Positions 28,413-48,419 of a stretch of DNA of 64,000 nt are shown in pieces. This DNA comes from Candidatus Dormiibacterota bacterium. Its GTDB lineage: Bacteria; Chloroflexota; Dormibacteria; Aeolococcales; Bog-877. The translations under genes were made by a program, and so were the position numbers. The notes beneath the pieces are model-generated. The model had not been told where the DNA came from. It did not search any database and was given only the letters and a program-made list of their open reading frames with translations. How positions within the stretch are numbered: position 1 is the stretch's first letter; the number at the start of each line of letters is the position of its first letter. The DNA is taken from the NCBI GenBank assembly GCA_049790415.1, contig JBAQYY010000102.1, forward strand, positions 1,069 to 65,068, in the 5' to 3' direction.

Positions 28413-28535
28413 ATGAAGGTCCAGCCGTCGATCGCGACCTACCGTCACGTCAACGAGCCAGGTGCCCTTCGTGGTGGGCCCTGGATCGAATGCTCGGCCG
28501 GGCGGATTCCCTGCCAGCTCTCTAATTCCTCGTGA
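28413..28535 (+). CDS. 40-aa upstream ORF (MKVQPSIATYRHVNEPGALRGGPWIECSAGRIPCQLSNSS) with a strong SD, whose stop overlaps the GTG start of the DUF3494 gene
   Basis: AGGAGG with a 5-nt spacer before ATG 28413. Its stop TGA at 28533-28535 overlaps GTG 28532-28534 of the next gene (GTGA). No homology recognised, so this could be a leader peptide or coupling ORF. Confidence 0.3.
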   Translation: MKVQPSIATYRHVNEPGALRGGPWIECSAGRIPCQLSNSS

Positions 28536-29491
28536 GTAGCAGAATCGGCGTGCCGAAGTACTCCCGCCGTTTTGGTGTGATCGCGGCGATAGCCGCCGGG
28601 GTCGCTCTAGCCGCGCTACCGACGAGTGTCCTCGCCAACGTCGCCCCACCGAACCTGCTCACCGCTGCGAACTTTGCCGCCATTGCCGGTACTGGCATCA
28701 CCAACGCGCCTGGAACCGGGACGATCATCGCCGGGGCCGCCGCTGTTTATCCGGCGACTGCCGCTGCGGTAACGGGCTTTCCTCCGGGAACCTATACCAG
28801 TCTGGATGCCGATGGCGGCGCTGGTCAGGCTGTCGCTCTCCAAGCGCAGACTGACCTCACGGGCGCCTACACCGAGGCAGCCAACGCCACACCCTTTACC
28901 AACCTGACGGGGACTAACCTAGGCGGCTTGACGTTGACTCCGGGCGTATACCGGTTTACCTCCAACGCCCAGCTGACAGGCATCCTCACTCTGAACGGCG
29001 AGGGCCAAACCAATCCCACATTCATCTTCCAAATGGAAGCTGAACTGACCACTGCTAGCGGCTCCTCGGTGGTCTTCGAGAACGGCGCGAGCGGGTGTGC
29101 CCTGTATTGGCAGGTCACCAGCGAAGCCACCTTGGGAAGCACGACCTCATTTCAGGGCAACCTGATGACGCAGGCCGGCATCACCATGGGTTCTGATTCC
29201 ACGATCGGAGTCGGTGGAGGGGTGAACGGAGGCCGGGCCTTGGTGAACACGGCGGGTCTCTTGTCGATGGATACCGCCAACTTGATCGATGAACCAACCG
29301 GTGGCTGTGTCTATGCCGCCGCGACTACTACTACTACTCCTACGTCATCGACGACCACCCCGACGCCGGGTACCGGAATCTACGGAGTGGGACCGGGCGG
29401 CTTGCCCCTGAGCGTAATCGCGCTGACGCTCATTTGCGTAGGTGTGCTGGCCACATCGGCCGGGTTCAGTCTGCGACGCAACCGCGCATAA
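28532..29491 (+). CDS. DUF3494 (ice-binding-protein-like beta-helix) secreted protein with a Thr/Pro-rich linker and a C-terminal hydrophobic anchor plus Arg tail
   Basis: Signal peptide (RRFGVIAAIAAGVALAALPTSVLA). Then LLTAANFAAIAGTGITN...TGFPPGTYT...AQTDLTGAYTEAAN...LGGLTLTPGVYRF...LTGILTLNG...FIFQ...LTTASGSSVVF.NGASGCALYWQV...GRALV, which matches DUF3494/IBP family motifs. C-terminus ...TTTTTPTSSTTTPTPGTGIYGVGPGGLPLSVIALTLICVGVLATSAGFSLRRNRA. Confidence 0.7.
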   Translation: MSSRIGVPKYSRRFGVIAAIAAGVALAALPTSVLANVAPPNLLTAANFAAIAGTGITNAPGTGTIIAGAAAVYPATAAAVTGFPPGTYTSLDADGGAGQAVALQAQTDLTGAYTEAANATPFTNLTGTNLGGLTLTPGVYRFTSNAQLTGILTLNGEGQTNPTFIFQMEAELTTASGSSVVFENGASGCALYWQVTSEATLGSTTSFQGNLMTQAGITMGSDSTIGVGGGVNGGRALVNTAGLLSMDTANLIDEPTGGCVYAAATTTTTPTSSTTTPTPGTGIYGVGPGGLPLSVIALTLICVGVLATSAGFSLRRNRA

Positions 29492-29579
29492 CCTCTTCCA
29501 GTGACGGGGGCGTCCCCTTCACCGAGAAGTGACTGGGGGGCGGCGGCCAACGGGCCGTCGCTCCACTAGCGCGCAGCTG

Positions 29580-31175
29580 TCAGGACTGCTGCGGAGATTG
29601 GGGGCGGTAGTCCCGGGCCGACCACCCATCGGCGGGGGAGCTCAGCAAGCGGGCCAGTCCTTCGAGGGGGATGGCAACCCAGTCAGGTCGACTGCGTAGC
29701 TCGTAGTCAACCTCGTAGAGGGCCTGGCTGGCCTGCAGGCAGGTGAGCAGGACGCGCACCGTGTGGCCATCCTCGGGGACCATGCCATCGTCTCCCAGGG
29801 TCGCGAAATAATGGCCCAGGAAGGCATCGCGAGCCAGTCCCGACCAGGCGCGGCCGTACGGTCCCAGGCTGGCCGCGCTGACGTCGGCCGCATCGACTTG
29901 CTGGCGGAGGGCGACGGTGGCGGCGTAGTCGAAGGAGCGCAGCATTCCCGCCAAATCCTGGAGCGGAGTCGCCTTACGACGGCGGACGGCGATGGGTAGC
30001 GAGGGCCGCCCCTCAAAGTCGAGGGCGTGCCAGCCGGCATCGGTGCGAAGTATTTGGCCCAGGTGGTAATCGCCGTGGATCCGGATGGCCTTCCCCGCGG
30101 GCGTCAAACCGACAACCTGTTGGGCCAACTCGCGAAGGGCATTGGCGTGGACCGCCAAGGGCTCGAGGCGGGGGTCGTCTAGGCCGAGGAGCTTCTCGGT
30201 GAGTGAGTCCAGGTCGTCCGCGATGACCTGTAGGTCGTCCCCGTTCAGGGGCCGAGGAACGAGCTCCGGCGCGCTTTCAAGGCCAGCCAGGGCCAGGTGC
30301 ATCTCCGCTGTCAGAGCCCCGATCTGGCCGGCTGCGCCCGCGAAAGAGGATCCCTGGCGCTGCACGGCCTGGAGGCAGTCCTCGGGCAGAGGCACCGCTC
30401 CATCCGCGTCGATCAACAGATCGCCGTAGAGATCGCGCAGGGAGGTAAGAGCCAGAGAGAAGCCGTCGGTTCCGTTGCGGAGGTAGCTCTGGGCTACCGC
30501 CAGCGAGCTCGTGACTCCCTCGGTCTCGGCCTCCACGACTCCCAAGGGTCGAGCGATTCCCGTGAAACCAGCTGCGTCGAGCGCCTCTAGAAGCTCGACT
30601 TCCGGACTTACCCCGGGCCAGACCCGGCGCAGGACCTTGATCAGGACCTCGTCGCCATAGAGGACGGTCGACTGGCTCTGGTCCTTGGGGGCCATCTGGT
30701 TTGGCTCCAGGGCGGCCAAAGGCGGCAGGGGCGGGTGCAGGAGGCGGAAGTGGAGCCGCCCAGAGGGTGATCCCTTGATGGTGGCGCTGGCGCCCAGGGA
30801 AGCGAGGAATTTGACCGCCACCTGGGGGTCGGCAAAGCTGTCGTACACCGCCCAGCTGGAGCTGGACTCTCCCTCGGGGTCGGCCTCCTCGGGCCCGACT
30901 CGGCGGGCTACGGAGCGAATCGCCGCCGGCAGGTGTCGGTCCCAGGGGCGCACTCCCAGCACCAGCTGGTAAGCGGCGGCTATGCCGTCCTCGAAGTCAA
31001 CCGCGATCAGGGCAATCACCAACCCCGGTACTTCGCGGTCAATCCAGAACGTCTGCTCAATGTGGAGTTGCCTGATCCGTCGGTGTTTGTCAGCGAACCA
31101 GCGTTCTTGGGAGAGCGAGGCTGCCAGGGCGGCCTCGATGCCGGGGATCGCTCCCAGTTCCGGGACGGGGCTCAT
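29580..31175 (-). CDS. mak: Maltokinase (maltose 1-phosphate synthase, Mak/Pep2) of the GlgE alpha-glucan pathway
   Basis: AIRIHGDYHLGQILRTDAGWHALDFEGRP (kinase catalytic loop with DFEG), ~530 aa. ATG at 31175 has a GGAGGG RBS and overlaps the treS stop (ATGA). The 148-aa Pro/Arg-rich N-extension of the track ORF (to 31619) lies inside treS and was rejected. Confidence 0.8.
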   Translation of the reverse strand: MSPVPELGAIPGIEAALAASLSQERWFADKHRRIRQLHIEQTFWIDREVPGLVIALIAVDFEDGIAAAYQLVLGVRPWDRHLPAAIRSVARRVGPEEADPEGESSSSWAVYDSFADPQVAVKFLASLGASATIKGSPSGRLHFRLLHPPLPPLAALEPNQMAPKDQSQSTVLYGDEVLIKVLRRVWPGVSPEVELLEALDAAGFTGIARPLGVVEAETEGVTSSLAVAQSYLRNGTDGFSLALTSLRDLYGDLLIDADGAVPLPEDCLQAVQRQGSSFAGAAGQIGALTAEMHLALAGLESAPELVPRPLNGDDLQVIADDLDSLTEKLLGLDDPRLEPLAVHANALRELAQQVVGLTPAGKAIRIHGDYHLGQILRTDAGWHALDFEGRPSLPIAVRRRKATPLQDLAGMLRSFDYAATVALRQQVDAADVSAASLGPYGRAWSGLARDAFLGHYFATLGDDGMVPEDGHTVRVLLTCLQASQALYEVDYELRSRPDWVAIPLEGLARLLSSPADGWSARDYRPQSPQQS

Positions 31176-32815
31176 CCGGCGCCCTCCAGACTCAGCCAGT
31201 AAAAGGCGTGGGGCCCGAGGGTGAAGGGGTAGGGCTGCTGCCCGACGCGGGGAAAGGGCACCCGCCCGACAAGTTCGACGGGGATGGCCCCGGCAAACTG
31301 GCGCAGGTCCAACTCCACCGGCTGGGCGAAGCGGGAGAGGTTGTTCACGCAGAGGATGGTCTCGCCTTCGCTGGCTCGGAGGAACCCCAGGATCGAGGGA
31401 TTGGTAGCTTCGACCACTTCGAAGGTACCCCGGCCGAAGACGGGGTGGGACTGGCGCACGCGGATGAAGCGGCGCAGCCACTGCAGCAGCGAGGTCTCGC
31501 TGCGCTGCTGCTGTTCGACGTTGCAGGCCTGGTAGCCATAGAGGGGGTCCATTAGTGGAGGCAGGTAGAGCTGGGCGAAGTCGGCCCGTGAGAAGCCCCC
31601 GTTGCGGTCGCCATTCCACTGCATCGGAGTCCGCACTCCGTCTCGGTCCCCCACGTAGACGTTGTCGCCCATCCCGATCTCGTCGCCGTAGTAGAGGACA
31701 GGGGTTCCCGGAAAGGAGAGCAAGAGGCCGTAGAGGAGCTCCATCTGGCGCCGCCCATTGCCGAGGAGAGGTGCCAAGCGGCGGCGGATGCCGATGTTGA
31801 GCTTCATCCGGGGATCTCGGGCGTATTCGGCATACATGTAGTCGCGCTCGGCGTCGGTGACCATCTCCAGGGTGAGCTCATCGTGGTTGCGCAGAAAGAT
31901 TCCCCACTGGCAATCGGGAGGGATGTCAGGGGTCTGGGCCAGGATCTCGGTTATCGGGTAGCGCTGCTCCTGGCGCAGGGCCATGAACATCCGGGGCATG
32001 AGGGGAAAGTGAAAGCACATCTGGCACTCATCGCCGTCCCCGAAGTACGCCCGCACGTCGGTCGGCCACTGGTTGGCCTCGGCGAGGAGGACCCGGTCGT
32101 GAAAGCGAGAGTCGACCTCGCGGCGGATGCGCTTCAGGAACTCGTGAGTCTGGGGAAGACTCTCGCAGGTGGTGCCCTCTTCCTCGAAGAGATAGGGCAC
32201 GGCGTCCAAGCGCAGGCCATCAAGTCCCAAGTCCAGCCAGAAGAAGATCACCTCCAGCATGGCCTGCTGAACCTCAGGGTTCTCGTAGTTGAGGTCAGGC
32301 TGGTGGCTGAAGAAGCGGTGCCAGTAGTAAGCGCCAGTTTGGGGATCCAGGCTCCAGTTGGACGCCTCGGTGTCGACGAAGATGACCCGGGCATCCTGGT
32401 AACGGCTGGTGGTCTCGCTCCACACGTACCAGTCACGCTTGGGGGAGTGCCGGCTGCTTCGAGCCTCCTGGAACCATGGGTGCTGGTCGGAGGTGTGGTT
32501 CACCACCAAGTCGGTGATCACCCGGATGCCCCGGGAATGCGCCTCAGTGATCAGGCGTTCCATATCGGCGACTGATCCGTACTCCGGTTGGATGGCGAAG
32601 AAGTCGGAGATGTCATAGCCGCCATCCCGCTGCGGCGATGCGAAGACAGGCAACAGCCACAGGCAGTTCACGCCGAGCCAGTGCAGGTAGTCGAGTTTGG
32701 CGATCAGGCCGGGCAAATCACCAATGCCATCATCATCGGCATCGAAGAACCCTCTGACGAAGACCTCGTATATGACTGCGTCGCGGTACCACTGGGGATC
32801 GGGGCCCAGGTTCAT
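31172..32815 (-). CDS. treS: Trehalose synthase / maltose alpha-D-glucosyltransferase TreS (GH13)
   Basis: DPQWYRDAVIYEVFVRGFFDADDDGIGDLPGLIAKLDYLHWLGVNCLWLLPVF...GYDISDF...DLVVNHTSDQHPWF...GLRLDAV are the GH13 catalytic motifs, with a TreS-specific C-terminus. ATG 32815 overlaps the glgE stop (ATGA). Confidence 0.9.
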   Translation of the reverse strand: MNLGPDPQWYRDAVIYEVFVRGFFDADDDGIGDLPGLIAKLDYLHWLGVNCLWLLPVFASPQRDGGYDISDFFAIQPEYGSVADMERLITEAHSRGIRVITDLVVNHTSDQHPWFQEARSSRHSPKRDWYVWSETTSRYQDARVIFVDTEASNWSLDPQTGAYYWHRFFSHQPDLNYENPEVQQAMLEVIFFWLDLGLDGLRLDAVPYLFEEEGTTCESLPQTHEFLKRIRREVDSRFHDRVLLAEANQWPTDVRAYFGDGDECQMCFHFPLMPRMFMALRQEQRYPITEILAQTPDIPPDCQWGIFLRNHDELTLEMVTDAERDYMYAEYARDPRMKLNIGIRRRLAPLLGNGRRQMELLYGLLLSFPGTPVLYYGDEIGMGDNVYVGDRDGVRTPMQWNGDRNGGFSRADFAQLYLPPLMDPLYGYQACNVEQQQRSETSLLQWLRRFIRVRQSHPVFGRGTFEVVEATNPSILGFLRASEGETILCVNNLSRFAQPVELDLRQFAGAIPVELVGRVPFPRVGQQPYPFTLGPHAFYWLSLEGAG

Positions 32816-34794: not shown

Positions 34795-35142
34795 GAGGCT
34801 AGATTGCCACCCAGGGCCATGGCGCTGCAGTCACCTGGACCAACCGGGATGTAATCCCAGGAGGGGGATAAGCGCCCCAGGACGTTCTTATCAAGAGCCT
34901 TGTCTCTCGTAGACGGTCGCTGATGGACCAGCAGCGAGTGCGCCCCTAGCGCGGTTGCGGCGAGCGCGCAATAATCCGGCGGCGAGGCCTCCCCACCAGC
35001 GCCATCAGCGCGATACCACGTTGATAAACTGGGGCTGCAAGAGCCGCCGATCCAGCTGCGGCGTCGGACTTCGCGAGGTTCGGGCGAGTCCAGTAGTTGG
35101 TTGCCCCTACATGTAATCAGGGCTGCCCAGAGCGAGGGATAA

Positions 35143-36384: not shown

Positions 36385-36682
36385 CTTAGCGGGGTTCCTG
36401 CGCCAAATGGCGCGCTTGCTTGGGTCAGCTCGTGCTGGAGGGCACCCTGATAACTGCCCCGGAAGAACTCAGTCTGCGCTGGCCTATCTGGGCGTGCCGC
36501 CCGCCCACCGCGGACAGGGCTATGTCGATGAGCTGCTGGCGGAGGGAACGCGGATCCTCGCCGGCCAGAACGTGCCCCGCATCCCGGCGTCGACTGATCT
36601 CGACAACCTGCCCATGGCTGCCGCCTTCATCCCAGCTGGCTGGGACAACTTCGAGCGCGCCATCACCATGACCTGGGCCTGA
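36374..36682 (+). CDS. GNAT acetyltransferase C-terminal fragment (possible gene remnant)
   Basis: GVPPAHRGQGYVDELLAEG resembles GNAT motif A, but only ~100 aa are present and the N-terminal half is missing. Overlaps the MFS gene end by 11 nt. Confidence 0.3.
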   Translation: MVRNLAGFLRQMARLLGSARAGGHPDNCPGRTQSALAYLGVPPAHRGQGYVDELLAEGTRILAGQNVPRIPASTDLDNLPMAAAFIPAGWDNFERAITMTWA

Positions 36683-37008: not shown

Positions 37009-39888
37009 ATGCGCGTCCGCAGCAGCGGCCGTGGCGCTTTGGGATGTGACATGGGAGGACCAGGGATGGCAAGGCGGCAGGCCGGGGCGAAATTTGCCCC
37101 TTCGGGATGGGATCGGACCAGCGAGCGGCCAACTTTGCAGGCGGCCGTCTGGCGGGAGCTCGCTTCTAGCTGGTCGGGCCGTCTTGCCGGTCCACGGCGA
37201 AGCGCCGCCCGCTTGATGATGGCGGCCCTGTCGGCTGGTGTCATCCTGGCGGCCGCAGCCTTCTCACTGGCCAGCGCGCCAGTCCAGGCGGCCACCACTA
37301 TGACGACTTTGTCGGGGGATGTCCTTCCCGGACTGGCGTCGGCCACCGATCTGGGGGCGACGCCCAGCGGGACCCGGGTTGAGGTGGTGATTGCCTTCAA
37401 CCAGCCCGACCAGGCTGCCGAGCAGGCGGCCTACAAGGCGATGTACACCAAGGGCAACGCCAACTACCACCACTTCCTGACCCCGGCCCAGTTCGCAGCC
37501 GAGTTCGGGGTATCGGCAAGTGACTACTCCGCGGTGCAATCGTGGGCGACGGCCCAGGGGCTGTCGGTGGTGCTGGCGCCGACTGATCACCTCAGTCTCA
37601 CCCTGGCGGGCACCCCCGCCCAGGTGGATAGCACCTTCTCGGTGAGCCTGGACAACTTCAGTAGTCACGGACTCACCTTCTATGCCAACACCAACAATCC
37701 CACCGTGCCCGCAAACATGGGCATTCTTTCAGTGATCGGGCTCAACAGCTTTCTGCGCAGCGTGACCAACAATCACCTGCCGTCGGCCAGCGCGGAGCAC
37801 GGCACAGTAGCCGAGGTTCAGCCGGCCCAGGGCACCTGCGAGCCCGACGTCTGCGTGGGCCTGACTACGCCCCAAGACCTCTGGAGCATCTACGACCAGC
37901 CGGGAGTCGACCTGACCAAGGAGGGGCCGAACGACAACTTCGGGGAGGGTCAGCAGATGGCCGTCTTCGGCGAGGGTCAGACGGCCGGTCCTCTCTCCGA
38001 CCTACGCATTTTCGAGTCTCTCAACGGACTCCCGCAAATTCCCATCAAGGTGGTCCTCACTGACGGGCCCAACGCTGACTACAGCGACACCTCAGGGTCT
38101 GAGGAGTGGGACATCGACAGCCAATCGTCGACCGGGATGTCCCCCAACGCCCTTGACGAGGTCTGGTACTTCGGCGCCTCCCTGACCGACGCCTCGGTCC
38201 TGACCGCTATGACCACCTGGACCAACGATCCCAACGGTCCGCTCCAGGCCAATGCCAGCTACGGCGAGTGTGAGTACAGCGTCGCCGGCTCAACTGCCGG
38301 GGTGAGCGCCGGCCAGGCCTTCCAGGAGGCCAGCGAAAACAACCTCATGGAGGCAAACATGGAGGGCCGCACCCTCTTCTCCTCCGCCGGCGACACCGGC
38401 TCCTCGTGCCCGATCCTGCCGGCCGACACCAACGGGGTCGCCCCTCAGGGCTACCCGCAGCCGAACTATCCCGCTGACAGTCCTCACGCCGTGGACGTCG
38501 GTGGAACCGTCCTCTACGGCAATGGGGCCACCCCGCCGACGCGGGTCCTGGAGTACGCCTGGACCTTCACCGGTGGCGGCGGAAGTTGGGATTTCCCGGA
38601 GCCCTCTTACCAGGATGGGGTATCAACTGTAGACCTCCCCTGCGGTCCGGCCATCGATGGAGGCTACGGGAGTGGAACTTGCCGCGGCGTGCCTGACGTG
38701 GCAGCCCAGTCGGGAGACATTCAGAGCAACGGCTACGCGATTGTGGCTGCTGGAACGCCGGACTCCCAGGGAGCGGGGACCAGCCTCGCCTCTCCCCTCT
38801 GGATGGGGATGTGGACACGGGTGCAATCTGCGGCGCCTGCGGTGACCGTGGATGGCAATGCGACCTACCCCGGTCTGGGCTTCGCCAACTTCACCTTCTA
38901 CAGCATCGGAACCAACACCGGCGAGGATCCGACTGCCTTCTTCGACATCGGCGGCACCACCGACTCTGAGCCCTCCGGAAACGGCTACTTCAGCGCCTTG
39001 CCCCGGAGCGCCGTCGACCCGTCGGGGTGGGACTACGTGTCGGGGTTTGGGTCGCCTGACATCACCCAGATCGCCAAGGATGCCGACGGCGGCAACACCG
39101 CCCCCAGCGACGACGTCCTGCCCGTCTACGGAGGCGGCGGCACCGGAAGCACCCCGGCCACGGTTGCTGCTTGCTATCCCCTCTTCATCGCCCCGCCCGG
39201 CGGAGATGACTTCGAGGGCAACAGCGGCGGTAACCCGCAAATGGACGTGATCCAGGGCGACATGCACATTAGCCCGAACGGCCAGACCCTGGAGGCGATC
39301 CTGACCATCGAGAACATGTCTTCGAGTCCGGCCAGCGCCGAGGCAGGTGCTCCCACCTCGACTTCCAACGAGTACTACATGAAGTGGTCCTATACGCCGC
39401 CCGGGTCGACCACCACCACGGCCTACTTTGCCAACGCTGAGGTGGATGCTGGGACCGGCACCGTCACTTACTCGGACGGGACCGTCACCGGCAACAGCTA
39501 CGCCCCAACCAATACCGACGACACCGGCAAGATCGTGGATGGAGCAGATGGCACGGTCGAGATCGATGTGCCCCTGAGCCACGTTGGCTCGCCAACCACC
39601 GGGGACCTGCTGGTGGGCCCGGCTGGAGCCACGTTTGCGGAGGTCGGAGTTCCCGGTGCGGGCGGCCTTCTCGAGGCTGTCGACAGCGCCGGGCCCGGAT
39701 ACAACTACACCATCGGCGAGTACTGCGGGGCCACCGGCCAGCCCGGAACGAGCGGTGGTACCCCTCCGGCCGGCCAGGTTCCCCAGGTGCCCTGGGCACC
39801 CCTCCTACCCCTGGCCGGGCTTGGTCTCCTCTTTGCCTCCAGCTACGGATTGCGGCGGCTGCGTCGATTCCAAACCAAGAACGGCTAA
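37009..39888 (+). CDS. Secreted peptidase S53 family (sedolisin/kumamolisin-like) with pro-kumamolisin activation domain, C-terminal beta-rich extension domains and a C-terminal hydrophobic anchor plus Arg tail
   Basis: Propeptide-like LTPAQFAAEFGVSASDYSAVQSWATAQGLSVV. The catalytic Ser sits in GAGTSLASPLWMG (SGTSxAxP-type), and Gly-rich S8/S53 blocks are present. C-terminus ...PAGQVPQVPWAPLLPLAGLGLLFASSYGLRRLRRFQTKNG. The start is uncertain: 37009, 37066 or ATG 37216 just before the hydrophobic signal RLMMAALSAGVILAAAAFSLASAPVQA. Confidence 0.75.
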   Translation: MRVRSSGRGALGCDMGGPGMARRQAGAKFAPSGWDRTSERPTLQAAVWRELASSWSGRLAGPRRSAARLMMAALSAGVILAAAAFSLASAPVQAATTMTTLSGDVLPGLASATDLGATPSGTRVEVVIAFNQPDQAAEQAAYKAMYTKGNANYHHFLTPAQFAAEFGVSASDYSAVQSWATAQGLSVVLAPTDHLSLTLAGTPAQVDSTFSVSLDNFSSHGLTFYANTNNPTVPANMGILSVIGLNSFLRSVTNNHLPSASAEHGTVAEVQPAQGTCEPDVCVGLTTPQDLWSIYDQPGVDLTKEGPNDNFGEGQQMAVFGEGQTAGPLSDLRIFESLNGLPQIPIKVVLTDGPNADYSDTSGSEEWDIDSQSSTGMSPNALDEVWYFGASLTDASVLTAMTTWTNDPNGPLQANASYGECEYSVAGSTAGVSAGQAFQEASENNLMEANMEGRTLFSSAGDTGSSCPILPADTNGVAPQGYPQPNYPADSPHAVDVGGTVLYGNGATPPTRVLEYAWTFTGGGGSWDFPEPSYQDGVSTVDLPCGPAIDGGYGSGTCRGVPDVAAQSGDIQSNGYAIVAAGTPDSQGAGTSLASPLWMGMWTRVQSAAPAVTVDGNATYPGLGFANFTFYSIGTNTGEDPTAFFDIGGTTDSEPSGNGYFSALPRSAVDPSGWDYVSGFGSPDITQIAKDADGGNTAPSDDVLPVYGGGGTGSTPATVAACYPLFIAPPGGDDFEGNSGGNPQMDVIQGDMHISPNGQTLEAILTIENMSSSPASAEAGAPTSTSNEYYMKWSYTPPGSTTTTAYFANAEVDAGTGTVTYSDGTVTGNSYAPTNTDDTGKIVDGADGTVEIDVPLSHVGSPTTGDLLVGPAGATFAEVGVPGAGGLLEAVDSAGPGYNYTIGEYCGATGQPGTSGGTPPAGQVPQVPWAPLLPLAGLGLLFASSYGLRRLRRFQTKNG

Positions 39889-40089
39889 TCGCGGAGGTAC
39901 CCAGCCTGGGTGCCACTGACCATTGCACCCCCACCGAGGGCAGCCCACGGGCTGCCCTCTTCGGGATGCTTTGCAGCGACACCATCCCGGCCGGTCACCG
40001 TTGGACATTCTGGCAAGGGCTGTCTAAGATGCCCACCAGCGCGTTACTGATAGCGGCTAACTGACCTCGGCTAGAGGGGGGAGCAGTAG

Positions 40090-41175
40090 TTGACTGCCGG
40101 GACGGCGATCCGGGCGACTGAGTCAGGCGATCTCGCCTCCGACCTCGACCTTGGCTGGCTCTGCGACCGCTACCGCGATCAAGCAGTCGGGTACGCCTTC
40201 TCCGTGCTTCGCGACCGGGCCCTGGCCGAGGACGCCGTCCAATTGGCCTTCGCTCGGATTCTGGCCCGCGTCAGCGGCGGGGATCACGACCTGCTCCGTG
40301 ACGATCCGGAGAGGGTGGTCGTGCGCAACACGCGCTGGGCGGCTCTGGAACTGGTGGAGCGACGCCGGCGCAACGAGACCTCCGAACTCGACCAAGAGTC
40401 GCACGGCGGCGTGGTTGAGACAGCCAGCGGAGTCTGGGAGCGGTCCCAGGCGCGAATGCTTTGCGATCAGATCGCCAAGAGTCTGCCCGCCCACTACCTC
40501 GCTGTCCTGCGCATGCGCTATGTCGAGGAGCGGCACGACGCCGACGGAGCTGCCCGCCTGCGTCTCTCCGTCAAGGCCTACCGCTGTCGGGTGGACCGCG
40601 CCCTGCGCGCGGCTCGGCTCCATGCCAACCGCTTGGGCATCGATTCCCTGGGTGGTGTGGCCGTGGTGGGCTGGCAGTACCTGGGACGCCGGTTCGCTCG
40701 GATCCGTACCGGGCTTGTCGGCGACTCGACCGAACTGACCCAGGTCGGCTCGGTGGGAGCCCACGGACTGGTGGTGCTTCTGGCCATCGGCGGCCTGGCG
40801 GTCGCCCCCGTACTTCTGAGCGGCGGCGGCTCGAACCACACCGTTCGGACGCCGGTTGGAGTTTCCGCGTCGGAATTGGTCTCCTCGCCACAACAGAACG
40901 CGGTGACGTCGGCGCCCCAGCCGTCGGCCTGCAACGTGAGCTGCGCCACTCTGCCTTCTCTCTCAGCTGTGCCGCCGAGCGGATCACTAATCACGGCTCC
41001 GAGCCTCGCTCCGCCGAGTGTCAGTCAGGGTGGGGTTGTCTTGGGAGCGGGCAGCCTCGGCGCCGCGCAAGCACACCCGCTCTTCGCCGGCCTACCAGGA
41101 GTGAACGTTCCCAAGGTGGTGACTAACCCGCCCCTGAGTTCACTTCCCGCCATCCCGGTAAGCCCGCTCCCCTAG
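40090..41175 (+). CDS. ECF-type sigma factor-like protein fused to a transmembrane segment and Ser/Pro-rich extracytoplasmic tail (sigma/anti-sigma-like fusion)
   Basis: The N-terminal ~190 aa have sigma-70 region 2-like (EDAVQLAFARILARV) and region 4-like (LPAHYLAVLRMRYVEERHDADGAARLRLSVKAYRCRVDRALRAARL) stretches. A TM helix (GAHGLVVLLAIGGLAVAPVLL) and a Ser/Pro/Ala-rich C-terminus follow. TTG start. Confidence 0.5.
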   Translation: MTAGTAIRATESGDLASDLDLGWLCDRYRDQAVGYAFSVLRDRALAEDAVQLAFARILARVSGGDHDLLRDDPERVVVRNTRWAALELVERRRRNETSELDQESHGGVVETASGVWERSQARMLCDQIAKSLPAHYLAVLRMRYVEERHDADGAARLRLSVKAYRCRVDRALRAARLHANRLGIDSLGGVAVVGWQYLGRRFARIRTGLVGDSTELTQVGSVGAHGLVVLLAIGGLAVAPVLLSGGGSNHTVRTPVGVSASELVSSPQQNAVTSAPQPSACNVSCATLPSLSAVPPSGSLITAPSLAPPSVSQGGVVLGAGSLGAAQAHPLFAGLPGVNVPKVVTNPPLSSLPAIPVSPLP

Positions 41176-41360
41176 CCGACCAGCTGGCCACTCATCCCGG
41201 CCTTCGGCTAGCACTTGAAGAAGGGCCCACGGCGACGCCCGGCTGATCTGAGCTGGGCCAAGGCGAGGACTTCTCCCCTCCTCGACCTCCTACTGAATAA
41301 GCGAGCCGCCCCGGCAGTTGTGCTGGCACGGTTACCGAAGTCGCACAGGGAGGATCTCTG

Positions 41361-43148
41361 GTGGGGGTGTTACCCAGGGGCAAGGTGCGTCTCCGCGCCC
41401 CTATCGGCCGGGCGACCGCAGTGGCGGCGCTCTCAGGGGCCGCTGGCGCGGCTGTCCGCCAGATAAGTGGGCGTCATCTTTGGCCGGCCATTGGAATCGC
41501 TCTCTGCGCGCTGCTCGCCTATGCCTTCACCCTGGCGACCTTTCTCAACAACCTGACTCTCGACACTCCCCTCGCCTACCTGCCGCTTCTTCCCCTGATC
41601 GCGGTCTGGGCCAGCTGGGAGGCGGCGGGCCGTTACCAGGGCAAGAAGGCACCGATCCGAGATCGCCAGCTCGACTACATCCTCGGTGTTCCGCTGCTGC
41701 TGATTGCCCTCTTTCTGATCACCATCACTCCGGTGCTGTGGGGGACCTTTTACTGGTCGCTCCGTCCCGACGTTCTCTCCTTCGCGCTCTTCGTGGTGGC
41801 TGGGGTGGTCCTTGCCTACGGGGTCGGTTGGGCCTGGCGGATGCGAGTTCCCTTGCTGCTCCTCTTGCTGATGTGGCCAGCCCTCTACGTGGGCGCCGTG
41901 GCCGGCTTCCTCAACTGGTGCGTCTTGGCCACCGATGCCATCCTCGGGCTGGTCACCTCCCACCTGCCACTCGGGGTCTCCCAGGTGGTGCAAAACCCGG
42001 CCGTCCTCTCCATTCACACCACGACTGGGCAGTTGATCCAGGTCAGCGTCAGCACCGCCTGCGCCGGTGGTGATGGGGTCTTGGGCTTCCTCCTCATCGG
42101 CGGCACGCTCATGGTCGCGGTCACCGGAGCCCTCTTCTCGCGGCTGGCTTGGCTGGTGGCCGGCACCCTGGTCACCTTCGTCCTCAACGTCGCCCGGATC
42201 GTGGCCATCGCCTTCCTGGTGCGGGAGAACCACCCGGTTTTTGCCCTGGGTGTCTTTCATGAGTTCATCGGGCTGTTCTTGTTCGGCGTCGGTCTGGCAG
42301 GCATGGTCTGGCTGCTCCCCGCCTTCGGCCTGGCGCACCGGGCCCGCCATTCTGGCAGTGTCCCGGCGGCGCCCGGCGAGGCGCCCACGCGACCGCCTTT
42401 TGGGGCCGGTCTGAGTCGGCGGCGGCTGACCACCCGACTGGCGGTCGCGCTCGTCGTCCTCGGACTGTTCGTGGCCGGAGATCAGACCCTCGGGCTGTAT
42501 GCCGGCTTCGCCAATGGGCAAGGGGCGCCGACCGTGGCCGCCATGGGGACCAGCTCCCGGGTGCCCCCGGGCTGGAGTGTGTCATTGCTGGCCACCTACC
42601 CCTGGGGGGATGAGTATTTCGGGGCCGGCTCTTCTTACGTCCGGTATCAGCTGAGCAATCCTGCCTCCTCGATCGGTGAGCCCGTGCTCTGGGCCGACGT
42701 GGTGACCACTCCGGACGTCAACGCCCTGCAGACCTACACCATCGAGAACTGCTTCCTCTTCCACAACTACGACATCATCTCGAGCCGTACTCTGGCCCTC
42801 AGTCACGGCGTCACCGCCGTGCTGCTCAACTACTCCGATCCCGCCTCGCACGGTCGCTGGGCCACCCTCTCCTGGACTTGGCCGGTTCGGCTGGGGGGCA
42901 CCACCGCCTACGAGCGCATCGAGTTGACGGCCGACCTGATGCCTGGATCCGCCAAGGTGCCGGATCTGCGTCCGGTATCGGCCCCCATCGAAAGTCTGGT
43001 CCTCGGCGTGGAGAACTTCTTCGGCGCCGCTGGGTCCAGGACGCGTGACCAGATTGCCGCTCAGTACCGTGGCGCTGACGCTGCTCTGGCCTCTTTTGGG
43101 GTGGCCTTCGTTGGCGCCACCGTGGCACCCCGTCGAGAGCGCATTTGA
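41361..43148 (+). CDS. Exosortase/archaeosortase-family polytopic membrane protein fused to a ~300-aa C-terminal extracytoplasmic (EpsI-like?) domain
   Basis: About 8 hydrophobic helices. Candidate catalytic Cys in VSTACAGGDGVLGF, and a conserved-type Arg 45 residues later in FVLNVARIVAIAF, matching the Cys...NxxR spacing of the exosortase (EpsH/XrtA/ArtA) superfamily. Then FHEF and a second Arg cluster. GTG start with a GGGAGG RBS. The stop overlaps the GT2 gene start (TTGA). Confidence 0.6.
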   Translation: MGVLPRGKVRLRAPIGRATAVAALSGAAGAAVRQISGRHLWPAIGIALCALLAYAFTLATFLNNLTLDTPLAYLPLLPLIAVWASWEAAGRYQGKKAPIRDRQLDYILGVPLLLIALFLITITPVLWGTFYWSLRPDVLSFALFVVAGVVLAYGVGWAWRMRVPLLLLLLMWPALYVGAVAGFLNWCVLATDAILGLVTSHLPLGVSQVVQNPAVLSIHTTTGQLIQVSVSTACAGGDGVLGFLLIGGTLMVAVTGALFSRLAWLVAGTLVTFVLNVARIVAIAFLVRENHPVFALGVFHEFIGLFLFGVGLAGMVWLLPAFGLAHRARHSGSVPAAPGEAPTRPPFGAGLSRRRLTTRLAVALVVLGLFVAGDQTLGLYAGFANGQGAPTVAAMGTSSRVPPGWSVSLLATYPWGDEYFGAGSSYVRYQLSNPASSIGEPVLWADVVTTPDVNALQTYTIENCFLFHNYDIISSRTLALSHGVTAVLLNYSDPASHGRWATLSWTWPVRLGGTTAYERIELTADLMPGSAKVPDLRPVSAPIESLVLGVENFFGAAGSRTRDQIAAQYRGADAALASFGVAFVGATVAPRRERI

Positions 43149-45373
43149 GCGCCGCCGTGACTCCACCTCCGCCCCGCTTGGGTGAGCGCCTCCTCGATGA
43201 CGGTCTGCTCAGAGCGTCTCAGCTGGAGAGTCATCTCCGTGACCAGGCGGAGGTCGGCTGCCATCTGGGTGAGCTGCTGGTCGCCAGAGGGGCGGTCGCT
43301 GAGTCTGCCGTCTGGAAGTCCCTCGCCAGCGCTTGGGATGTGCCTTGGATGGAGATGACCCTTGACACGGTGGATCCGGCCACCGCCCTGCTCCTGGACC
43401 CCATCACCTCGGTGGAATCTGGCGTCCTTCCCTTCAAAGAGTCAGGAGGTCTGATCTGGATTGCCGCGATCGACCCCAGCGATGGGGCTGTCCGGGCCAC
43501 CGTCTCGCGGGAGATCACTCGCCCCCTGCTTTGGTTCGCTGCCACTCCCAGCTCGCTCCGCAAAGTCCAGGCCGCTCTCTTCGATCACGCCCTAGGCGAG
43601 GCTGCGGTCGCCACGTTGAGATCGGCTCACCCCGACGCGTCAGCTGAGCGGCAGCTCACCGGTCGTCAAGTCGCGTTCGGGCTGGGGGGCTTCGGCCTAC
43701 TGCTCATTGCCTTAGTTCTGTGGCGCGGGGCGGCGATGGTCGCGGTCATGGGCGCTGTGGTGATCTTCTATGCCGTCTGGCTGGCTTACCGCACCTGGGT
43801 CATCGTGAACGGTGCCCGGACCAGATCGGGTGAGACGGTCGACGCGACCGAGGCTCGCGGCCTCAAAGATCTTCCCGTTTACACCGTTCTCTGCCCGCTG
43901 TACCACGAGGGATCGGTGGTTGAGCAACTAGTGCGCCAGATCGAATCAATTGACTATCCGAGCGTCAAGCTCGATGTCAAGCTGCTGGTGGAGGCGGGCG
44001 ACCGAGAGACCAAGGCGGTGCTCGACTCGATCGATCTGCCGCCCTGTTGCGAGGTCCTAGTCGTTCCGGACATGGCCCCGCAGACCAAGCCCAAGGCCTG
44101 CAATTACGGCCTCCAGTTCGCCCGGGGTGAATTCGTAGTCATTTTTGACGCCGAAGACCGGCCCGAGCCCGACCAGCTGCGCAAAGCGCTGGGGTTGTTC
44201 CGGCGCCACCAGGATTCTCCCGGTCGTCCCGTGGGCTGCGTCCAAGCCCGACTGGCCTACTACAACGCGCGCCAGAACTGGTTGACCGGATGGTTTGCAC
44301 TGGAGTACCTCAGCTGGTTCGACTTCTTCCTCCCGGGCCTGGTCAAGCTGGGCCTGCCGGTGCCGCTGGGGGGAAGCTCCAACCACTTCCCGACTTCGGT
44401 TCTTCGCCAGATGGGCTGCTGGGACGCCTTCAACGTCACCGAGGATGCCGACTTGGGCATCCGGCTGCATCGGGCCGGCTACCGCACGGTGATCGTCGAC
44501 TCGGTGACCTGGGAGGAGGCCAACAGCGACTTCGTCAACTGGACTAAGCAGCGCTCGCGCTGGGGCAAGGGCTACTTCGTCACCTGGGCGGTGAACATGC
44601 GCCGGCCGGTCCGTCTCTGGCGGGAGCTTGGGGCTAGAGCCTGGCTGTCGGTGCAGATGACCCTGGCCGGCACCTACCTAACCGCCGTCCTCAACCTCTT
44701 GCTCTGGGGCCTGATGGTGGTCTGGATCCTGGGCCAACCGACGGCGGTGGCCAGCTTGTTCCCCTCGGGCATTTACTACCTGGCCATGCTCGAGTTGCTG
44801 CTGGGCAACTTCTTCTTCCTCTACGTCACCCTTTGGTGCGCGACCGAGAGCGGCGCCTTCGGATTGACCCGGCTCGCTCTCAGCTACCCCGCCTACTGGG
44901 TGATGATGAGCGTGGCCATGGTCAAGGCCAGCCTGCAACTGCTGACCGACCACGTCTACTGGGAGAAGACCATCCACGGCCTCACTCCCCCCTCGGGAGG
45001 TCCGCCTACAGCCGGCCGGCCGCCGGATCCCAAGCTGGCTGACCTGAGCCCGCGGCTGGAGCCGGTGCCGGTTAGGCATCTGGCCCGAGCTCTGAAACCC
45101 GGAGGCGGCCACAGCCGGCGTCGGGGCCTCCGCTGGATCGCCCCAGGACTCACGGTGGGCCTGACGGCAGCTGTGGCCGCGGTGACCTGGGCGGGCATGG
45201 CGGCCACCTCGAACGCGGCGCTTCGCGCCCGGCTCGACCAGGCGCAGCCCCCGGCCGCGGCCAGCGTCTCGCCAGCTCTCGCGGGCCAGGTTGGACCGGA
45301 CTCCAAGATCACTTCGCTCGATACCGGGGCCAAGGGACGGGGGCTCATGCATCCCCTCGGTGGCGACTCATGA
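43145..45373 (+). CDS. Processive family-2 glycosyltransferase (cellulose/hyaluronan/PNAG-synthase-like, QxxRW) with an N-terminal MshEN/T2SSE_N (GspE N-terminal) domain
   Basis: The N-terminal ~120 aa (LGELLVARGAVAESAVWKSLASAWDVPWMEM...ESGVLPFKESGGLIWIAAIDPSDGAVRATVSREI) have a GspE-N/MshEN fold-type sequence. Then 2 TM, the GT2 catalytic core (VIFDAEDRPEPDQL with the DxD, QRSRWGKG with the QxxRW) and more TM helices. TTG start overlaps the exosortase stop. Confidence 0.75.
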   Translation: MSAAVTPPPPRLGERLLDDGLLRASQLESHLRDQAEVGCHLGELLVARGAVAESAVWKSLASAWDVPWMEMTLDTVDPATALLLDPITSVESGVLPFKESGGLIWIAAIDPSDGAVRATVSREITRPLLWFAATPSSLRKVQAALFDHALGEAAVATLRSAHPDASAERQLTGRQVAFGLGGFGLLLIALVLWRGAAMVAVMGAVVIFYAVWLAYRTWVIVNGARTRSGETVDATEARGLKDLPVYTVLCPLYHEGSVVEQLVRQIESIDYPSVKLDVKLLVEAGDRETKAVLDSIDLPPCCEVLVVPDMAPQTKPKACNYGLQFARGEFVVIFDAEDRPEPDQLRKALGLFRRHQDSPGRPVGCVQARLAYYNARQNWLTGWFALEYLSWFDFFLPGLVKLGLPVPLGGSSNHFPTSVLRQMGCWDAFNVTEDADLGIRLHRAGYRTVIVDSVTWEEANSDFVNWTKQRSRWGKGYFVTWAVNMRRPVRLWRELGARAWLSVQMTLAGTYLTAVLNLLLWGLMVVWILGQPTAVASLFPSGIYYLAMLELLLGNFFFLYVTLWCATESGAFGLTRLALSYPAYWVMMSVAMVKASLQLLTDHVYWEKTIHGLTPPSGGPPTAGRPPDPKLADLSPRLEPVPVRHLARALKPGGGHSRRRGLRWIAPGLTVGLTAAVAAVTWAGMAATSNAALRARLDQAQPPAAASVSPALAGQVGPDSKITSLDTGAKGRGLMHPLGGDS

Positions 45374-47070
45374 GACCGGCGTCCACGATGCCGACTCTGG
45401 CCGTCGGCGTCGATGGAGTCCTGCCTGGCCCCAGTTCACTCGCTCCGCGGCGAGGGAACTGGCGTACTGCGTTGGGAAGGTCGGCCAGCGGGGCCCGTGC
45501 CATCGCGCACGAGGGCCCCTTGATCTTCGTCGGCTCGCTGAGCGCCTACCTGGCGGCTGCCTACTACCTCGTCTTCCGGCTTAACTACGTCGCGCCGGAT
45601 GCCCTCTCCCGCGTTGCCAACGCCTTCTATGTTCTCTATTCGCGCGATCCCCACCTGGCCGCCATCGGAATGATCTGGAATCCGCTCCCGAGCTTCCTCG
45701 AGCTGCCACTGGTGGCGCTCAAGAGCTGGCTTCCGTGGTTGGTTGACCGCGGTTTTGCGGGCAATGTAGAGACGGCCTGCTTCGGTGCCGGAGCGGCAAC
45801 CGTGGTGGCCGTCTTGCTTCGTGATGCGGGCGTGGGACGTGCCCTGCGGATAGGGCTGGTCGCGGTTTGGGCCCTCAATCCGATGGTGTTGCTCTACAGC
45901 AGCAATGGCATGAGTGACATCACCTTGATGTTCTTCCTGCTGGCGGCGGGTTGGCTGCTGTTGCGCTGGTTACGCAATCCCCGCGACATCCTCCTGGTCG
46001 GTCTGGGCGCTATGGTGGCGGCTGCGACCCTGGTGCGCTATGAGGCCATCCCCTTCGCCGGCCTGGTGGCCCTGGTGGTCGTGGTTCGCGAGCACCGGGC
46101 GGGGAGCAACTGGAGAGAGTTGGAGGCGAGGCTTCTCCTCTACGGCCTACCAGTGCTTTTGGCAATCCTCTTCTGGGTGGGTGCCAATGCCGTGATCATG
46201 CACAACCCCCTGTACTTCCTCAACGGTTCCTACGCCAATCTCTCCCAGACCCAATCGACGCACGCGGGACAGCTGGCAGCGCTTCGACTGGAGACGTGGC
46301 CCGCTGCGGTGCGCTTCGTCGCTACCGAGTCAGTCCAGCTCTTCCCGGCATACCCAGCCCTGGTGATACTGACGCTGCTGCTGTCCGTGTGGCGACGCCA
46401 GGCTTTGCTCGGCATCGGACTCGCGCTGATGTCCACGGCTGCTCTGATGATGATGGCCTACTTGATTCATCGCGGCGGATTGGCACTCTACCTCCGCTAT
46501 TTCGTGAGTGTCATCCCTTTCAGCTTTGTCCTGGCGGCGTATTGCCTCAGCCTGGTCCGTCACCGCCTTAGAGAGCGTGCTCTGGCTGGGGTTCTGCTCC
46601 TCGCCTTCGCCGCCAGCGGAGCAGCCAGCTATCTGGCCATGGCCAACCCCGGACTTGGCGTCGAAGAACATGCCGCGGTCGCCGCTGCCCGCCAAAATCG
46701 GCCGCTCCAGTCCAGTCCCATCCTCCAGGAGCTGCGCTTGGGCCGGGTCATCAACCGCTTGGACCGCGCCCATCATCTCGTCCTGATTGATACCTTTGAA
46801 GGCGGGCCCCTGGTTCTAGGCAGCCCCGACCCGAGGCTCTTCGTCGTCACCAGCGACCTTGACTTTGAGGCGGCTCTGAATGATCCTCAGGCGTATCGCG
46901 TCGCCTACTTCGTCGTTCCCGAGCCCATCGGTGACGGCAAGCTCGACGCCATCAATCGCCGCTACCCGGGGCTTTGGGAAGACGGTGATGGCTTCGCTAC
47001 TCAGGTAGCCCAGCTCGGTTCCGGGGTGCAATGGCGCCTTTACCGGATAGTCGGACCTGCCCCTCAGTGA
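45370..47070 (+). CDS. Polytopic membrane protein, GT-C-like (ArnT/PMT/DUF2079-type) glycosyltransferase or polymerase candidate
   Basis: About 12 hydrophobic helices in the first 400 aa (YYLVFRLNYVAPD..., RYEAIPFAGL), then a soluble ~150-aa C-terminal domain. ATG overlaps the GT2 stop (ATGA). The family assignment is tentative. Confidence 0.5.
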   Translation: MRPASTMPTLAVGVDGVLPGPSSLAPRRGNWRTALGRSASGARAIAHEGPLIFVGSLSAYLAAAYYLVFRLNYVAPDALSRVANAFYVLYSRDPHLAAIGMIWNPLPSFLELPLVALKSWLPWLVDRGFAGNVETACFGAGAATVVAVLLRDAGVGRALRIGLVAVWALNPMVLLYSSNGMSDITLMFFLLAAGWLLLRWLRNPRDILLVGLGAMVAAATLVRYEAIPFAGLVALVVVVREHRAGSNWRELEARLLLYGLPVLLAILFWVGANAVIMHNPLYFLNGSYANLSQTQSTHAGQLAALRLETWPAAVRFVATESVQLFPAYPALVILTLLLSVWRRQALLGIGLALMSTAALMMMAYLIHRGGLALYLRYFVSVIPFSFVLAAYCLSLVRHRLRERALAGVLLLAFAASGAASYLAMANPGLGVEEHAAVAAARQNRPLQSSPILQELRLGRVINRLDRAHHLVLIDTFEGGPLVLGSPDPRLFVVTSDLDFEAALNDPQAYRVAYFVVPEPIGDGKLDAINRRYPGLWEDGDGFATQVAQLGSGVQWRLYRIVGPAPQ

Positions 47071-48419
47071 CGCCGTCGGGAGAGTACGCGACGTCCTTGC
47101 CACACCACGCCTAGGGCGAGCACCAGCAGGATGGCCGCGACCAAGGCCGGGAGCCAGCTCGTCCCAACACTTGCGATCACCGATTCATTCTGCTGAGCGC
47201 CACTGAGTTGAACGGCAGAACGCCCGCTCCCTTCCGTTCTGACAAGGTGATCGCCGCCCCAATCCGGGACACGTGCCTGGTTGGGCGTCTCAGTCGCCCG
47301 GGGGGCGGCGGCAATGCCGGTCGGGGTCGGGGCGGGACTGGGTGCGACCGAAGAGGCCATGACCGAATACCAGTACGCCACCGCCTCCCCGGCCGAGTTG
47401 AGCTGCAGGGTGGTGGGGTCGACGATTCCCTCCCCCTGCGTCTCACCGATGTCACGCCAGTAGTTGAAGCCGATGACATAGGGCAACTGCGCCACCGCCG
47501 CCAGGACGGAATTGACCTCAGGGCCCATCAGGGTCAGATTGCCGTCATCCCAGATGTCCCCCCACTCCCCCACAACCAGGGGCACGTGGTAGGTGGCCTC
47601 GATCTGGGCCAGGTTGGCGACCAAGGCCGCAGGCGACTGGAAGTAGTCGTCAACAGCGAGGACGCCCATGTCTTGCACGGTGGCTTGGCTGAGATAGCCA
47701 TTGGTGGCAATCCAGCCGTTGGTTCCCCAGTAGCCGACCTGGACGTTGAGGTGGAGGCTGGCGAAGGCGTCGCGATCGACGGTCATGCTGTCCTGGAGCC
47801 ATTGGTTGTAGACGGAAACGCTGGAGAACATGCAGTTGCTCGTACAAAGGGGAGATATTCCAGCGTTTTCCGGTTCCGCGGCAGGAGTGAAGGTGTCACC
47901 ACTCTGGAAAAGGTCAGCATTATCGAGAATCCAGTGGTAGGTGAGAGCCAGGTAGGAGGTGGTGTCCTGGCCGTCCAACACCGCGTTCGCTGTTCCCAAG
48001 GCGCGAGCCGGACTGCTGGTGGGGGTTTCCTTGGGGAATCCGTAATCGCCTTCCCAGCTATTCCAGTGGGAGCGGAACCAGACGTGCAAGCCGAGCGAGT
48101 GAGCGGCCTCGCTCCAGGTCGGCTCGTAGCCCGGAGCGACCGGCGGCGAGTATGTGGCAGCGGCGTCGTAGGGAACTTCAACCGCAACCGTGTCGGCCCC
48201 GGTGTCGCGGTCGGTGGTGAGCAGTTGAGCGATGCTGGACGGGGAGGCTTGATTGCGCAGTTGGTCTTTGGACCAGGCCATGGTGTCGACCGAGCGCAGC
48301 GACCAGGTGGGACTGCCAGCAGCCGCAGCTGAGGCGGGCAAGACAGATCCCCCGACTGCGGCCAACCCCAGGCCGAGCGCCGTCAGGGCACTTCCCCAAC
48401 GCCAAATCCAGTTCCGCAC
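47064..48419 (-). CDS. Secreted TIM-barrel glycoside hydrolase candidate (clan GH-A-like) with a C-terminal hydrophobic anchor plus Arg tail
   Basis: Signal peptide (ALTALGLGLAAVGGSVLPASAAAAG). VVGEWGDIW is a typical GH-A nucleophile Glu context. C-terminus ...ASVGTSWLPALVAAILLVLALGVVWQGRRVLSRRRH. Convergent with the GT operon. Confidence 0.55.
   Translation of the reverse strand: MRNWIWRWGSALTALGLGLAAVGGSVLPASAAAAGSPTWSLRSVDTMAWSKDQLRNQASPSSIAQLLTTDRDTGADTVAVEVPYDAAATYSPPVAPGYEPTWSEAAHSLGLHVWFRSHWNSWEGDYGFPKETPTSSPARALGTANAVLDGQDTTSYLALTYHWILDNADLFQSGDTFTPAAEPENAGISPLCTSNCMFSSVSVYNQWLQDSMTVDRDAFASLHLNVQVGYWGTNGWIATNGYLSQATVQDMGVLAVDDYFQSPAALVANLAQIEATYHVPLVVGEWGDIWDDGNLTLMGPEVNSVLAAVAQLPYVIGFNYWRDIGETQGEGIVDPTTLQLNSAGEAVAYWYSVMASSVAPSPAPTPTGIAAAPRATETPNQARVPDWGGDHLVRTEGSGRSAVQLSGAQQNESVIASVGTSWLPALVAAILLVLALGVVWQGRRVLSRRRH

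Follow-up and report, generated by a model that had tools for sequence, protein, structure and literature searches.

A candidate exosortase system with a V-P-E-x-P sorting signal in a Candidatus Dormibacterota genome

Three tailed proteins and an exosortase gene

Which proteins does an exosortase sort when several secreted proteins encoded near it end in a membrane helix and a run of arginines? The question is raised by a 64-kb stretch of DNA (hereafter the window) from a Candidatus Dormibacterota metagenome-assembled genome (MAG), with a GC (guanine plus cytosine) content of about 65 per cent. A first-pass annotation of the window had assigned one common tripartite tail, with a [GW]-x-L-P-[LA] motif, to three proteins: an ice-binding-like DUF3494 protein, an S53 peptidase, and a glycoside hydrolase (GH)-like protein. 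All three open reading frames (ORFs) are present with the C-termini quoted, and each has a plausible N-terminal signal peptide and a hydrophobic stretch followed by arginines; no further real gene in the window pairs a C-terminal helix with a basic end. The family labels also stand, namely DUF3494 (PF11999), S53 (Pro-kuma_activ and PDB sedolisin), and a GH-like barrel of clan GH-A. We consider it likely that positions 37.2–48.4 kb hold a Dormibacterota-specific exosortase system set in a polysaccharide-synthesis operon, with the S53 peptidase as its substrate and the other two tails being something else.

The exosortase-family gene (41361..43148, plus strand) lies 1473 bp downstream of the S53 gene, in agreement with the distance of about 1.5 kb given earlier. 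It encodes a polytopic membrane protein with a fused extracytoplasmic C-terminal domain (approximately residues 400–590) and exceeds the curated cutoffs of PF09721 (59.5 bits against 25.7) and TIGR04178 (38.6 against 23). The sequence is 100 per cent identical to an NCBI record named ‘archaeosortase/exosortase family protein [Candidatus Dormiibacterota bacterium]’. Across fifteen homologs with 28–86 per cent identity, Cys234 (within ACxG) and His300 are nearly invariant, while Asn276 and Arg279 are invariant. We take the conserved Cys, Arg, and His to be the catalytic residues of the family. No named subfamily (XrtA–Z, ArtA–F) could be assigned, with scores far below the respective cutoffs for XrtD (29 of 400 bits), XrtW (24.6 of 425), EpsH (25.6 of 105.6), and XrtA (21.4 of 208). 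This uncurated subfamily is kept across the Dormibacterota and a few MAGs labelled Actinomycetota. One homolog at 47 per cent identity (P0009) has SSAGG in place of ACxG, and the putative catalytic Cys is gone; it may be an inactive paralog or use a variant mechanism.

A conserved tail class beside the exosortase

A helix followed by arginines is a layout common to exosortase signals, sortase signals, and plain anchors, so a signature motif has to be derived by comparing orthologs, not tails from the same locus. We gathered forty-two related loci, in part by a search seeded with ten exosortase-homolog sequences. All linkage statistics refer to thirty-four non-redundant exosortase-centred loci, with the window counted among them. 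Candidate tails were picked from the related loci only by ‘helix plus basic end’, and the motif was read afterwards.

Thirty-one non-redundant tails beside exosortase homologs align as xx[VI]P[ED]xP..LL(P)..GG..RRRR. The motif of these exosortase-linked tails, [VI]-P-[ED]-[AVT]-P-(W)-x-(P)-LL..GG.., abuts the helix and is followed by RRRR 22–24 residues past the PE. A Pro inside the helix (LLP) is frequent yet secondary in genuine members of the class. It is this secondary Pro that the first-pass annotation had read in the S53 tail as part of an L-P-[LA] signature, and the exosortase-linked signature is instead [VI]-P-[ED]-x-P.

The linkage of this tail class to the enzyme gene is tight. We found thirty-seven unique tail-bearing ORFs in 432 kb of exosortase-centred DNA, with at least one in 22/34 loci and up to three per 20-kb locus in relatives, as against none in 84 kb of background DNA (Poisson P ~ 9e-4). 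Nineteen of them lie no more than 400 bp upstream of an exosortase gene, seventeen on the same strand. Exosortase homologs at 30–36 per cent identity (L041 and L042, one labelled Pseudonocardiales) have small secreted proteins directly upstream that end in VIPEAP or AVPEAPY...RRRR. The carriers belong to unrelated families (S53, a BNR-like propeller, S15 peptidase, Big_1, and unknowns), and nearly all have a signal peptide. This linkage, the unrelated carriers, and the existence of homologs with no tail or with other tails match published criteria for C-terminal sorting signals (bioRxiv 10.1101/2023.06.07.544157). The earlier expectation that a tail motif would accompany the exosortase in relatives holds for V-P-E-x-P in these 22 loci; L-P-[LA] is not the linked motif.

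The S53 peptidase (37216..39888, plus strand) is a secreted sedolisin and a likely exosortase substrate. Its reading frame is open from 37009, and the database gene call is an 890-aa protein with the start MMAALSAGVILAAAAFSLASA. Family membership is indicated by Pro-kuma_activ (75.3 bits) and PDB sedolisin 6m9c (E = 2.3e-16). The putative sorting signal at the extreme C-terminus, VPQVPW-APLLPLAGLGLLFASSYGL-RRLRRFQTKNG (39778..39885, plus strand), is tripartite, with the motif touching the helix and the Arg cluster RRLRR behind it. In the window the signature reads Q-V-P-Q-V-P-W (39772–39795, plus strand), a tandem QVP-QVP. The same VPQVPW is found in L017, a relative with an 86 per cent identical exosortase.

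For a quantitative comparison we made a profile from the tails of thirty-one relatives, excluding the window and the relative nearest to it, and ran it on the C-termini of 623 window ORFs. The S53 tail scores 33.9 bits (E = 7e-10), where the leave-one-out median of members is about 32 bits and the best decoy reaches 7.4 bits. It has no match at E ≤ 10 to either PEP-CTERM model, TIGR02595 or PF07589. The predicted relationship to a sorting domain is borne out by the locus-built profile and not by curated models, since TIGR02595, TIGR03370, and their relatives all lack a match at cutoff. Among 150 representative S53 homologs, about twenty-seven have a V-P-E-x-P tail, in every case with Glu. About 100 lack a tail, and others end in LAxTG, LPxTG, or TPDTG tails. 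An exchangeable sorting signal would be expected to show just this pattern, with S53 homologs elsewhere either tail-less or ending in LAxTG/LPxTG sortase tails. The S53 peptidase is very probably a substrate of the exosortase.

The ice-binding and hydrolase-like proteins

The tail of the ice-binding-like (DUF3494) secreted protein (28532..29491, plus strand; PF11999, 144 bits) is of another kind. An exact-sequence look-up of this protein returned no record. Its tail (29363–29488, plus strand) consists of TPGTG, a 12-aa spacer ending in GGLPLS, a helix, and RRNRA, an LPXTG-like layout in which TPGTG stands 10–12 residues upstream of the helix. LPXTG/sortase signals typically have such a spacer ahead of the helix, and exosortase signals typically do not (bioRxiv 10.1101/2023.06.07.544157). 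With the exosortase-tail profile this tail scores 6.8 bits, which is at decoy level. The first-pass annotation had stated that none of the three tails is LPXTG and that the window has no sortase; we likewise found no sortase there, but the TPGTG upstream of the helix had been overlooked.

A P-x-T-[GSRA] motif precedes the helix in 90 of 103 tail-bearing ice-binding homologs. Close relatives have TPxTG-x-[FY]G-xxP-x-G-[LV]-P-[LW], and more distant ones have LPNTG, LPDTG, or LPDTS. The tail of one homolog (P0121) passes the LPXTG_anchor model (TIGR01167; 21.0 against 15.9 bits), and its JGI name is that of an LPXTG protein; the window tail itself matches no LPXTG model. The neighbourhoods of two ice-binding homologs contain neither an exosortase nor a sortase. 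A phmmer search with S. aureus SrtA, combined with a TLxTC-type motif, found no sortase in 590 kb of DNA, though such a test is weak. On the contig of P0090, an exosortase homolog at 32 per cent identity, there is a Sortase gene at a distance of 7 kb, which indicates that the two systems can coexist. On these grounds the ice-binding tail probably belongs to a different, LPXTG-like class of sortase type outside the exosortase system.

We also considered the ice-binding tail as a variant of the PExP motif (P-[DG]-G-x-P-[WL]) and rejected this, given its decoy-level score and the absence of linkage between the homologs’ genes and exosortases. A second group of ice-binding tails, which we call class B (e.g. 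L039 9959–10888), has the form PSTG-AAPxALAPW-LLGSGA...RRRR and cross-scores at 18–22 bits with the exosortase-tail profile. These tails have the APW, LLGxG, and RRRR parts of exosortase-type tails, without the acidic residue; the likeness could come from either common ancestry or common membrane constraints. About ten ice-binding homologs (P0130, P0137, P0152, P0161, P0165, P0172–P0175, P0179) stop after ...[IV]PGVPxTGGA and have no helix. Truncated gene calls could explain them, or they could be forms that naturally lack a tail.

The GH-like protein (47064..48419, minus strand) is predicted to be a glycoside-hydrolase-like (beta/alpha)8 barrel of clan GH-A that is secreted and anchored in the membrane at its C-terminus. 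Foldseek matches GH164, GH5, GH113, and GH1 structures (E ~ 3e-8, TM ~ 0.5), and Glu182 and Glu285 are invariant in homologs. Its tail scores below 2.9 bits with the exosortase-tail profile. Around half of the nineteen homologs stop right after the barrel with no helix tail. In the others there is a short helix and then arginines; the cytoplasmic end, HWGAGP[VT][IM]R, is conserved, and the residues ahead of the helix are not (WLP, WLR, LLW, LPW). The L-P proposed as a motif in this tail is not kept in orthologs.

The translations of the window and L017 locate a premature TGA (47064–47066) at the Trp codon of a conserved ...RHWGAGPTIR end (47040..47066, minus strand). Because GAGPTIR and the ancestral stop are still in frame, what had been described as an Arg cluster at the extreme C-terminus is a truncation, and the arginines are terminal only through the TGA. 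The TGA reflects a nonsense mutation of recent date or a sequencing error, or it may be read through. The GH-like tail is best read as a plain membrane anchor for a hydrolase encoded in the operon, without a sorting signal and with its conserved cytoplasmic end truncated in this genome.

Gene neighbourhood, competing explanations and known systems

The gene order at 37.2–48.4 kb is S53, a sigma-like gene, the exosortase, a family 2 glycosyltransferase (GT2) with an MshEN domain, a GT-C-like gene, and the GH-A-like gene on the opposite strand. The core kept across related loci runs from the exosortase to the GT2 (MshEN) and then to the GT-C/PMT-like gene; some loci also have the GH-A-like gene. 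The reading frame that overlaps the stop codon of the exosortase encodes a GT2 synthase-type glycosyltransferase (43145..45373, plus strand) with an N-terminal MshEN domain of the c-di-GMP (cyclic diguanylate)-binding type. It matches Glyco_trans_2_3 at 90.5 bits and MshEN at 25.4 bits (cutoff 23.1), with further NfrB-like and c-di-GMP motif matches; in most of the longer related loci a GT2 gene comes after the exosortase. Next comes a polytopic GT-C/PMT-like putative glycosyltransferase (45370..47070, plus strand), which scores 34.5 bits with the LA_3751/2 family and 21.3 bits with PMT_2, below the cutoff of 26.1; its position after the GT2 is a conserved arrangement. The GH-like gene sits beside this exosortase–GT2–GT-C core in several related loci.

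Two homologs of about 1040 aa (P0080, P0081) combine exosortase and GT2 in one polypeptide, which suggests that the two act together. These fusions and the conserved exosortase–GT2–GT-C synteny tie the sorting enzyme to glycan synthesis. A subclade of loci (L004, L005, L007, L013, L016, L021) keeps the exosortase, GT2, and GT-C genes and has no V-P-E-x-P-tailed gene within 10 kb. Several of these loci have two genes of about 480 aa upstream instead, and a GT2 ORF of about 1170–1200 aa.

Between the S53 and exosortase genes is an ECF (extracytoplasmic function)-sigma-like protein (40090..41175, plus strand), which has a predicted membrane helix and, at its C-terminus, a long extension rich in Pro and Ser. 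Its matches to sigma regions 2 and 4 are below cutoff (TIGR02937, 31.8 against 42.9 bits; Sigma70_r2, 22 against 24). The gene occurs at this position only in the window’s clade, with orthologs in L001, L002, and L017, and it may encode a regulator of the operon. Three ORFs between the ice-binding and S53 genes (29580–34794, minus strand) resemble an alpha-glucan cluster leading from trehalose through maltose-1-phosphate to glucan. The GlgE assignment among them is backed by the Pfam annotation of the L017 ortholog, and the others are presumably TreS-like and maltokinase-like. The remaining window genes are housekeeping genes (PNPase, RNase J, FtsK, RecA, RNase Y, MutS, LexA, and others).

In the mechanism that we favour, the S53 sedolisin would be exported by Sec, after which its C-terminal helix and Arg cluster would hold it in the membrane. 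The exosortase, as a polytopic Cys/Arg/His enzyme, would recognise V-P-[E/Q]-x-P-W at the outer end of the helix and cleave there. By analogy with exosortases and archaeosortases, it would then transfer the protein to a surface acceptor, which could be a lipid or the polysaccharide product of the neighbouring glycosyltransferases. We infer the cleavage, the transfer, and what the acceptor is. Several observations weigh against this account. The S53 tail has Gln (CAG, 39784–39786) where about sixty other members of the class all have Glu or Asp, and for this reason its processing may be poor or absent. It is also the one V-P-[E/Q]-x-P class member in the 64-kb window. Six of twenty longer loci have exosortase and glycosyltransferase genes with no such tail within 10 kb. 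Finally, no curated PEP-CTERM-type model in NCBIfam or Pfam reaches its cutoff on any tail, whether the three from the window or ten from relatives; the best sub-threshold scores for relatives’ tails are with PExPT-CTERM (19.6 of 40 bits), VPXXXP (20.3 of 30), and MYXO-CTERM (17.9 of 20).

Were all three tails a single VPLPA-CTERM-like class of L-P-[LA] type, with the exosortase at 41361–43148 as the processing enzyme, as the first-pass annotation held, this would account for the signal peptide, C-terminal helix, and basic end that they share within 13 kb of the enzyme gene. The early helix Pro (LLP) is frequent in genuine V-P-E-x-P members, G-[LV]-P-[LW] is conserved among close ice-binding homologs, and the GH-like gene adjoins the enzyme’s core cluster in several relatives. 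Even so, we regard this as very unlikely. The ice-binding (6.8 bits) and GH-like (below 3 bits) tails fall short of the best decoy at 7.4, as against 33.9 for S53, and do not bear out PEP-CTERM-class membership for all three. The LP is not conserved in GH-like orthologs, half of whose relatives lack a tail altogether, and the ice-binding genes of relatives are not near exosortases. An equivalent tripeptide appears in 73 per cent of shuffles (a Pro-containing one in 7 per cent), so that one so common is expected by chance. The VPLPA-CTERM likeness claimed for the S53 tail also found no backing, as TIGR03370 has no match even at E ≤ 10 and the XrtD model gives 29 bits against a cutoff of 400.

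It is somewhat less improbable, though still unlikely, that the tails here are mere membrane anchors. The S53 protein with its Gln would then go unrecognised and stay tethered, and the exosortase would serve unseen PExP proteins or the polysaccharide pathway. This would fit the otherwise invariant Glu/Asp of the tail class, the evidently plain anchor of the GH-like protein, and the loss from the window and L017 of the PExP propeller gene that lies directly upstream of the exosortase in L001 and L002. However, the S53 tail is fully conserved apart from the Gln and scores as a typical member. Moreover, VPQVPW is kept in L017 alongside an exosortase with intact catalytic residues, which argues for continued selection on the pair. 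For the ice-binding tail, the chances are roughly even that it is a sortase-type signal ([T/L]-P-x-T-G, spacer, helix, basic end) processed by a sortase encoded elsewhere, independently of the exosortase. The 90 homologs with P-x-T-[GSRA], true LPNTG and LPDTG among them, the homolog that passes TIGR01167, and the LPXTG-type spacer all favour this, as do the Sortase gene near the distant exosortase homolog and an S53 homolog (P0241) with the same TPDTG-type tail. Set against these are the lack of an LPXTG model match for the window tail and of a sortase in the DNA searched, the raised chance of P-x-T-G matches in Thr/Pro/Gly-rich linkers, and the resemblance of class-B ice-binding tails to exosortase-type tails. 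Our preferred account remains the exosortase system with S53 as its substrate. As far as its sequence tells, the locus is an uncurated exosortase subfamily with a putative cognate V-P-E-x-P signal in a glycan-synthesis operon, and it has one convincing substrate in the window, the S53 peptidase with its unusual Gln.

Exosortase/PEP-CTERM sorting has been described as a feature of outer-membrane bacteria, usually tied to exopolysaccharide and floc formation. The locus resembles the PEP-CTERM systems of XrtA and EpsH in its polytopic exosortase-family enzyme with conserved Cys, Arg, and His, and in a tripartite signal in which a Pro-Glu-containing motif abuts the helix and is followed by an Arg cluster. 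Also alike are the presence of signal peptides in the targets, the several unrelated families to which these belong, and the site within a polysaccharide-synthesis locus. It differs in that the motif is P-E-x-P(-W), or P-Q-V-P in the window, and not P-E-P. TIGR02595 and the Pfam PEP-CTERM models have no match, the enzyme scores 21 bits against 208 for XrtA, and it has a fused Mog1/PsbP/DcrB-like extracytoplasmic domain, unlike XrtA.

A precedent in monoderm bacteria is XrtG/Firmicu-CTERM of the Firmicutes, which has the same order of a tail-bearing protein, an exosortase, and two glycosyltransferases (PMC12854382). Dormibacterota have been grouped with the Chloroflexi and the candidate phyla radiation as a monoderm clade (bioRxiv 10.1101/2021.05.31.446380). 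The earlier suggestion of a dedicated sorting system in a Gram-positive-type genome is upheld as to an exosortase-type system in an inferred monoderm host, but the Firmicutes precedent makes it less unusual than supposed. In contrast to XrtG, the enzyme here has no XrtG match at E ≤ 0.1, and the GT2 scores 27.6 bits against 364 for the XrtG-associated glycosyltransferase family TIGR03111. No tail matches the Firmicu-CTERM model, and several different enzymes per locus bear tails.

PExPT-CTERM/XrtJ has the same P-E-x-P spacing, and its model TIGR04200 gives the best sub-threshold match for some relatives’ tails, at the 19.6 bits noted above. This is below the cutoff of 40, though; the second Pro is not followed by a conserved Thr, and the enzyme has no XrtJ match. 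Of the named subfamilies, XrtD of the VPLPA-CTERM system (TIGR04152) scores best and, like the enzyme here, the XrtD type is long and has an additional C-terminal domain; yet its 29 bits stand far from the cutoff, and TIGR03370 gives 7.6–9.0 bits on relatives’ tails against 25.35. Likeness to LPXTG/sortase signals is confined to the ice-binding protein, with its P-x-T-G motif, spacer, helix, and basic end. Even this tail has Thr and not Leu first and a long 12-aa spacer, with no model match and no sortase in the window. A literature search for Dormibacter with exosortase or PEP-CTERM gave no paper joining them.

These results point to an exosortase subfamily that is distinct and has a recognisable signal of its own, in a phylum whose cells are inferred to have no outer membrane. 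Together, the enzyme profile and the tail profile make a searchable definition for annotating the surface proteomes of an abundant, uncultured soil phylum, and the tail class points to secreted hydrolases that are likely kept at the cell surface. A more tentative and rather doubtful idea is that Dormibacterota run two parallel C-terminal anchoring systems. One would be the uncurated exosortase subfamily with V-P-E-x-P for secreted hydrolases such as S53 proteases, BNR-type propellers, and S15 peptidases, its acceptor being a membrane lipid or a polysaccharide from the adjacent GT2 and GT-C, and the other a sortase-like system with P-x-T-G. The Glu-to-Gln variant would then show that the acidic residue is dispensable. 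If this were true, bacteria without an outer membrane would have their own counterpart of the ArtA-type anchoring of archaea.

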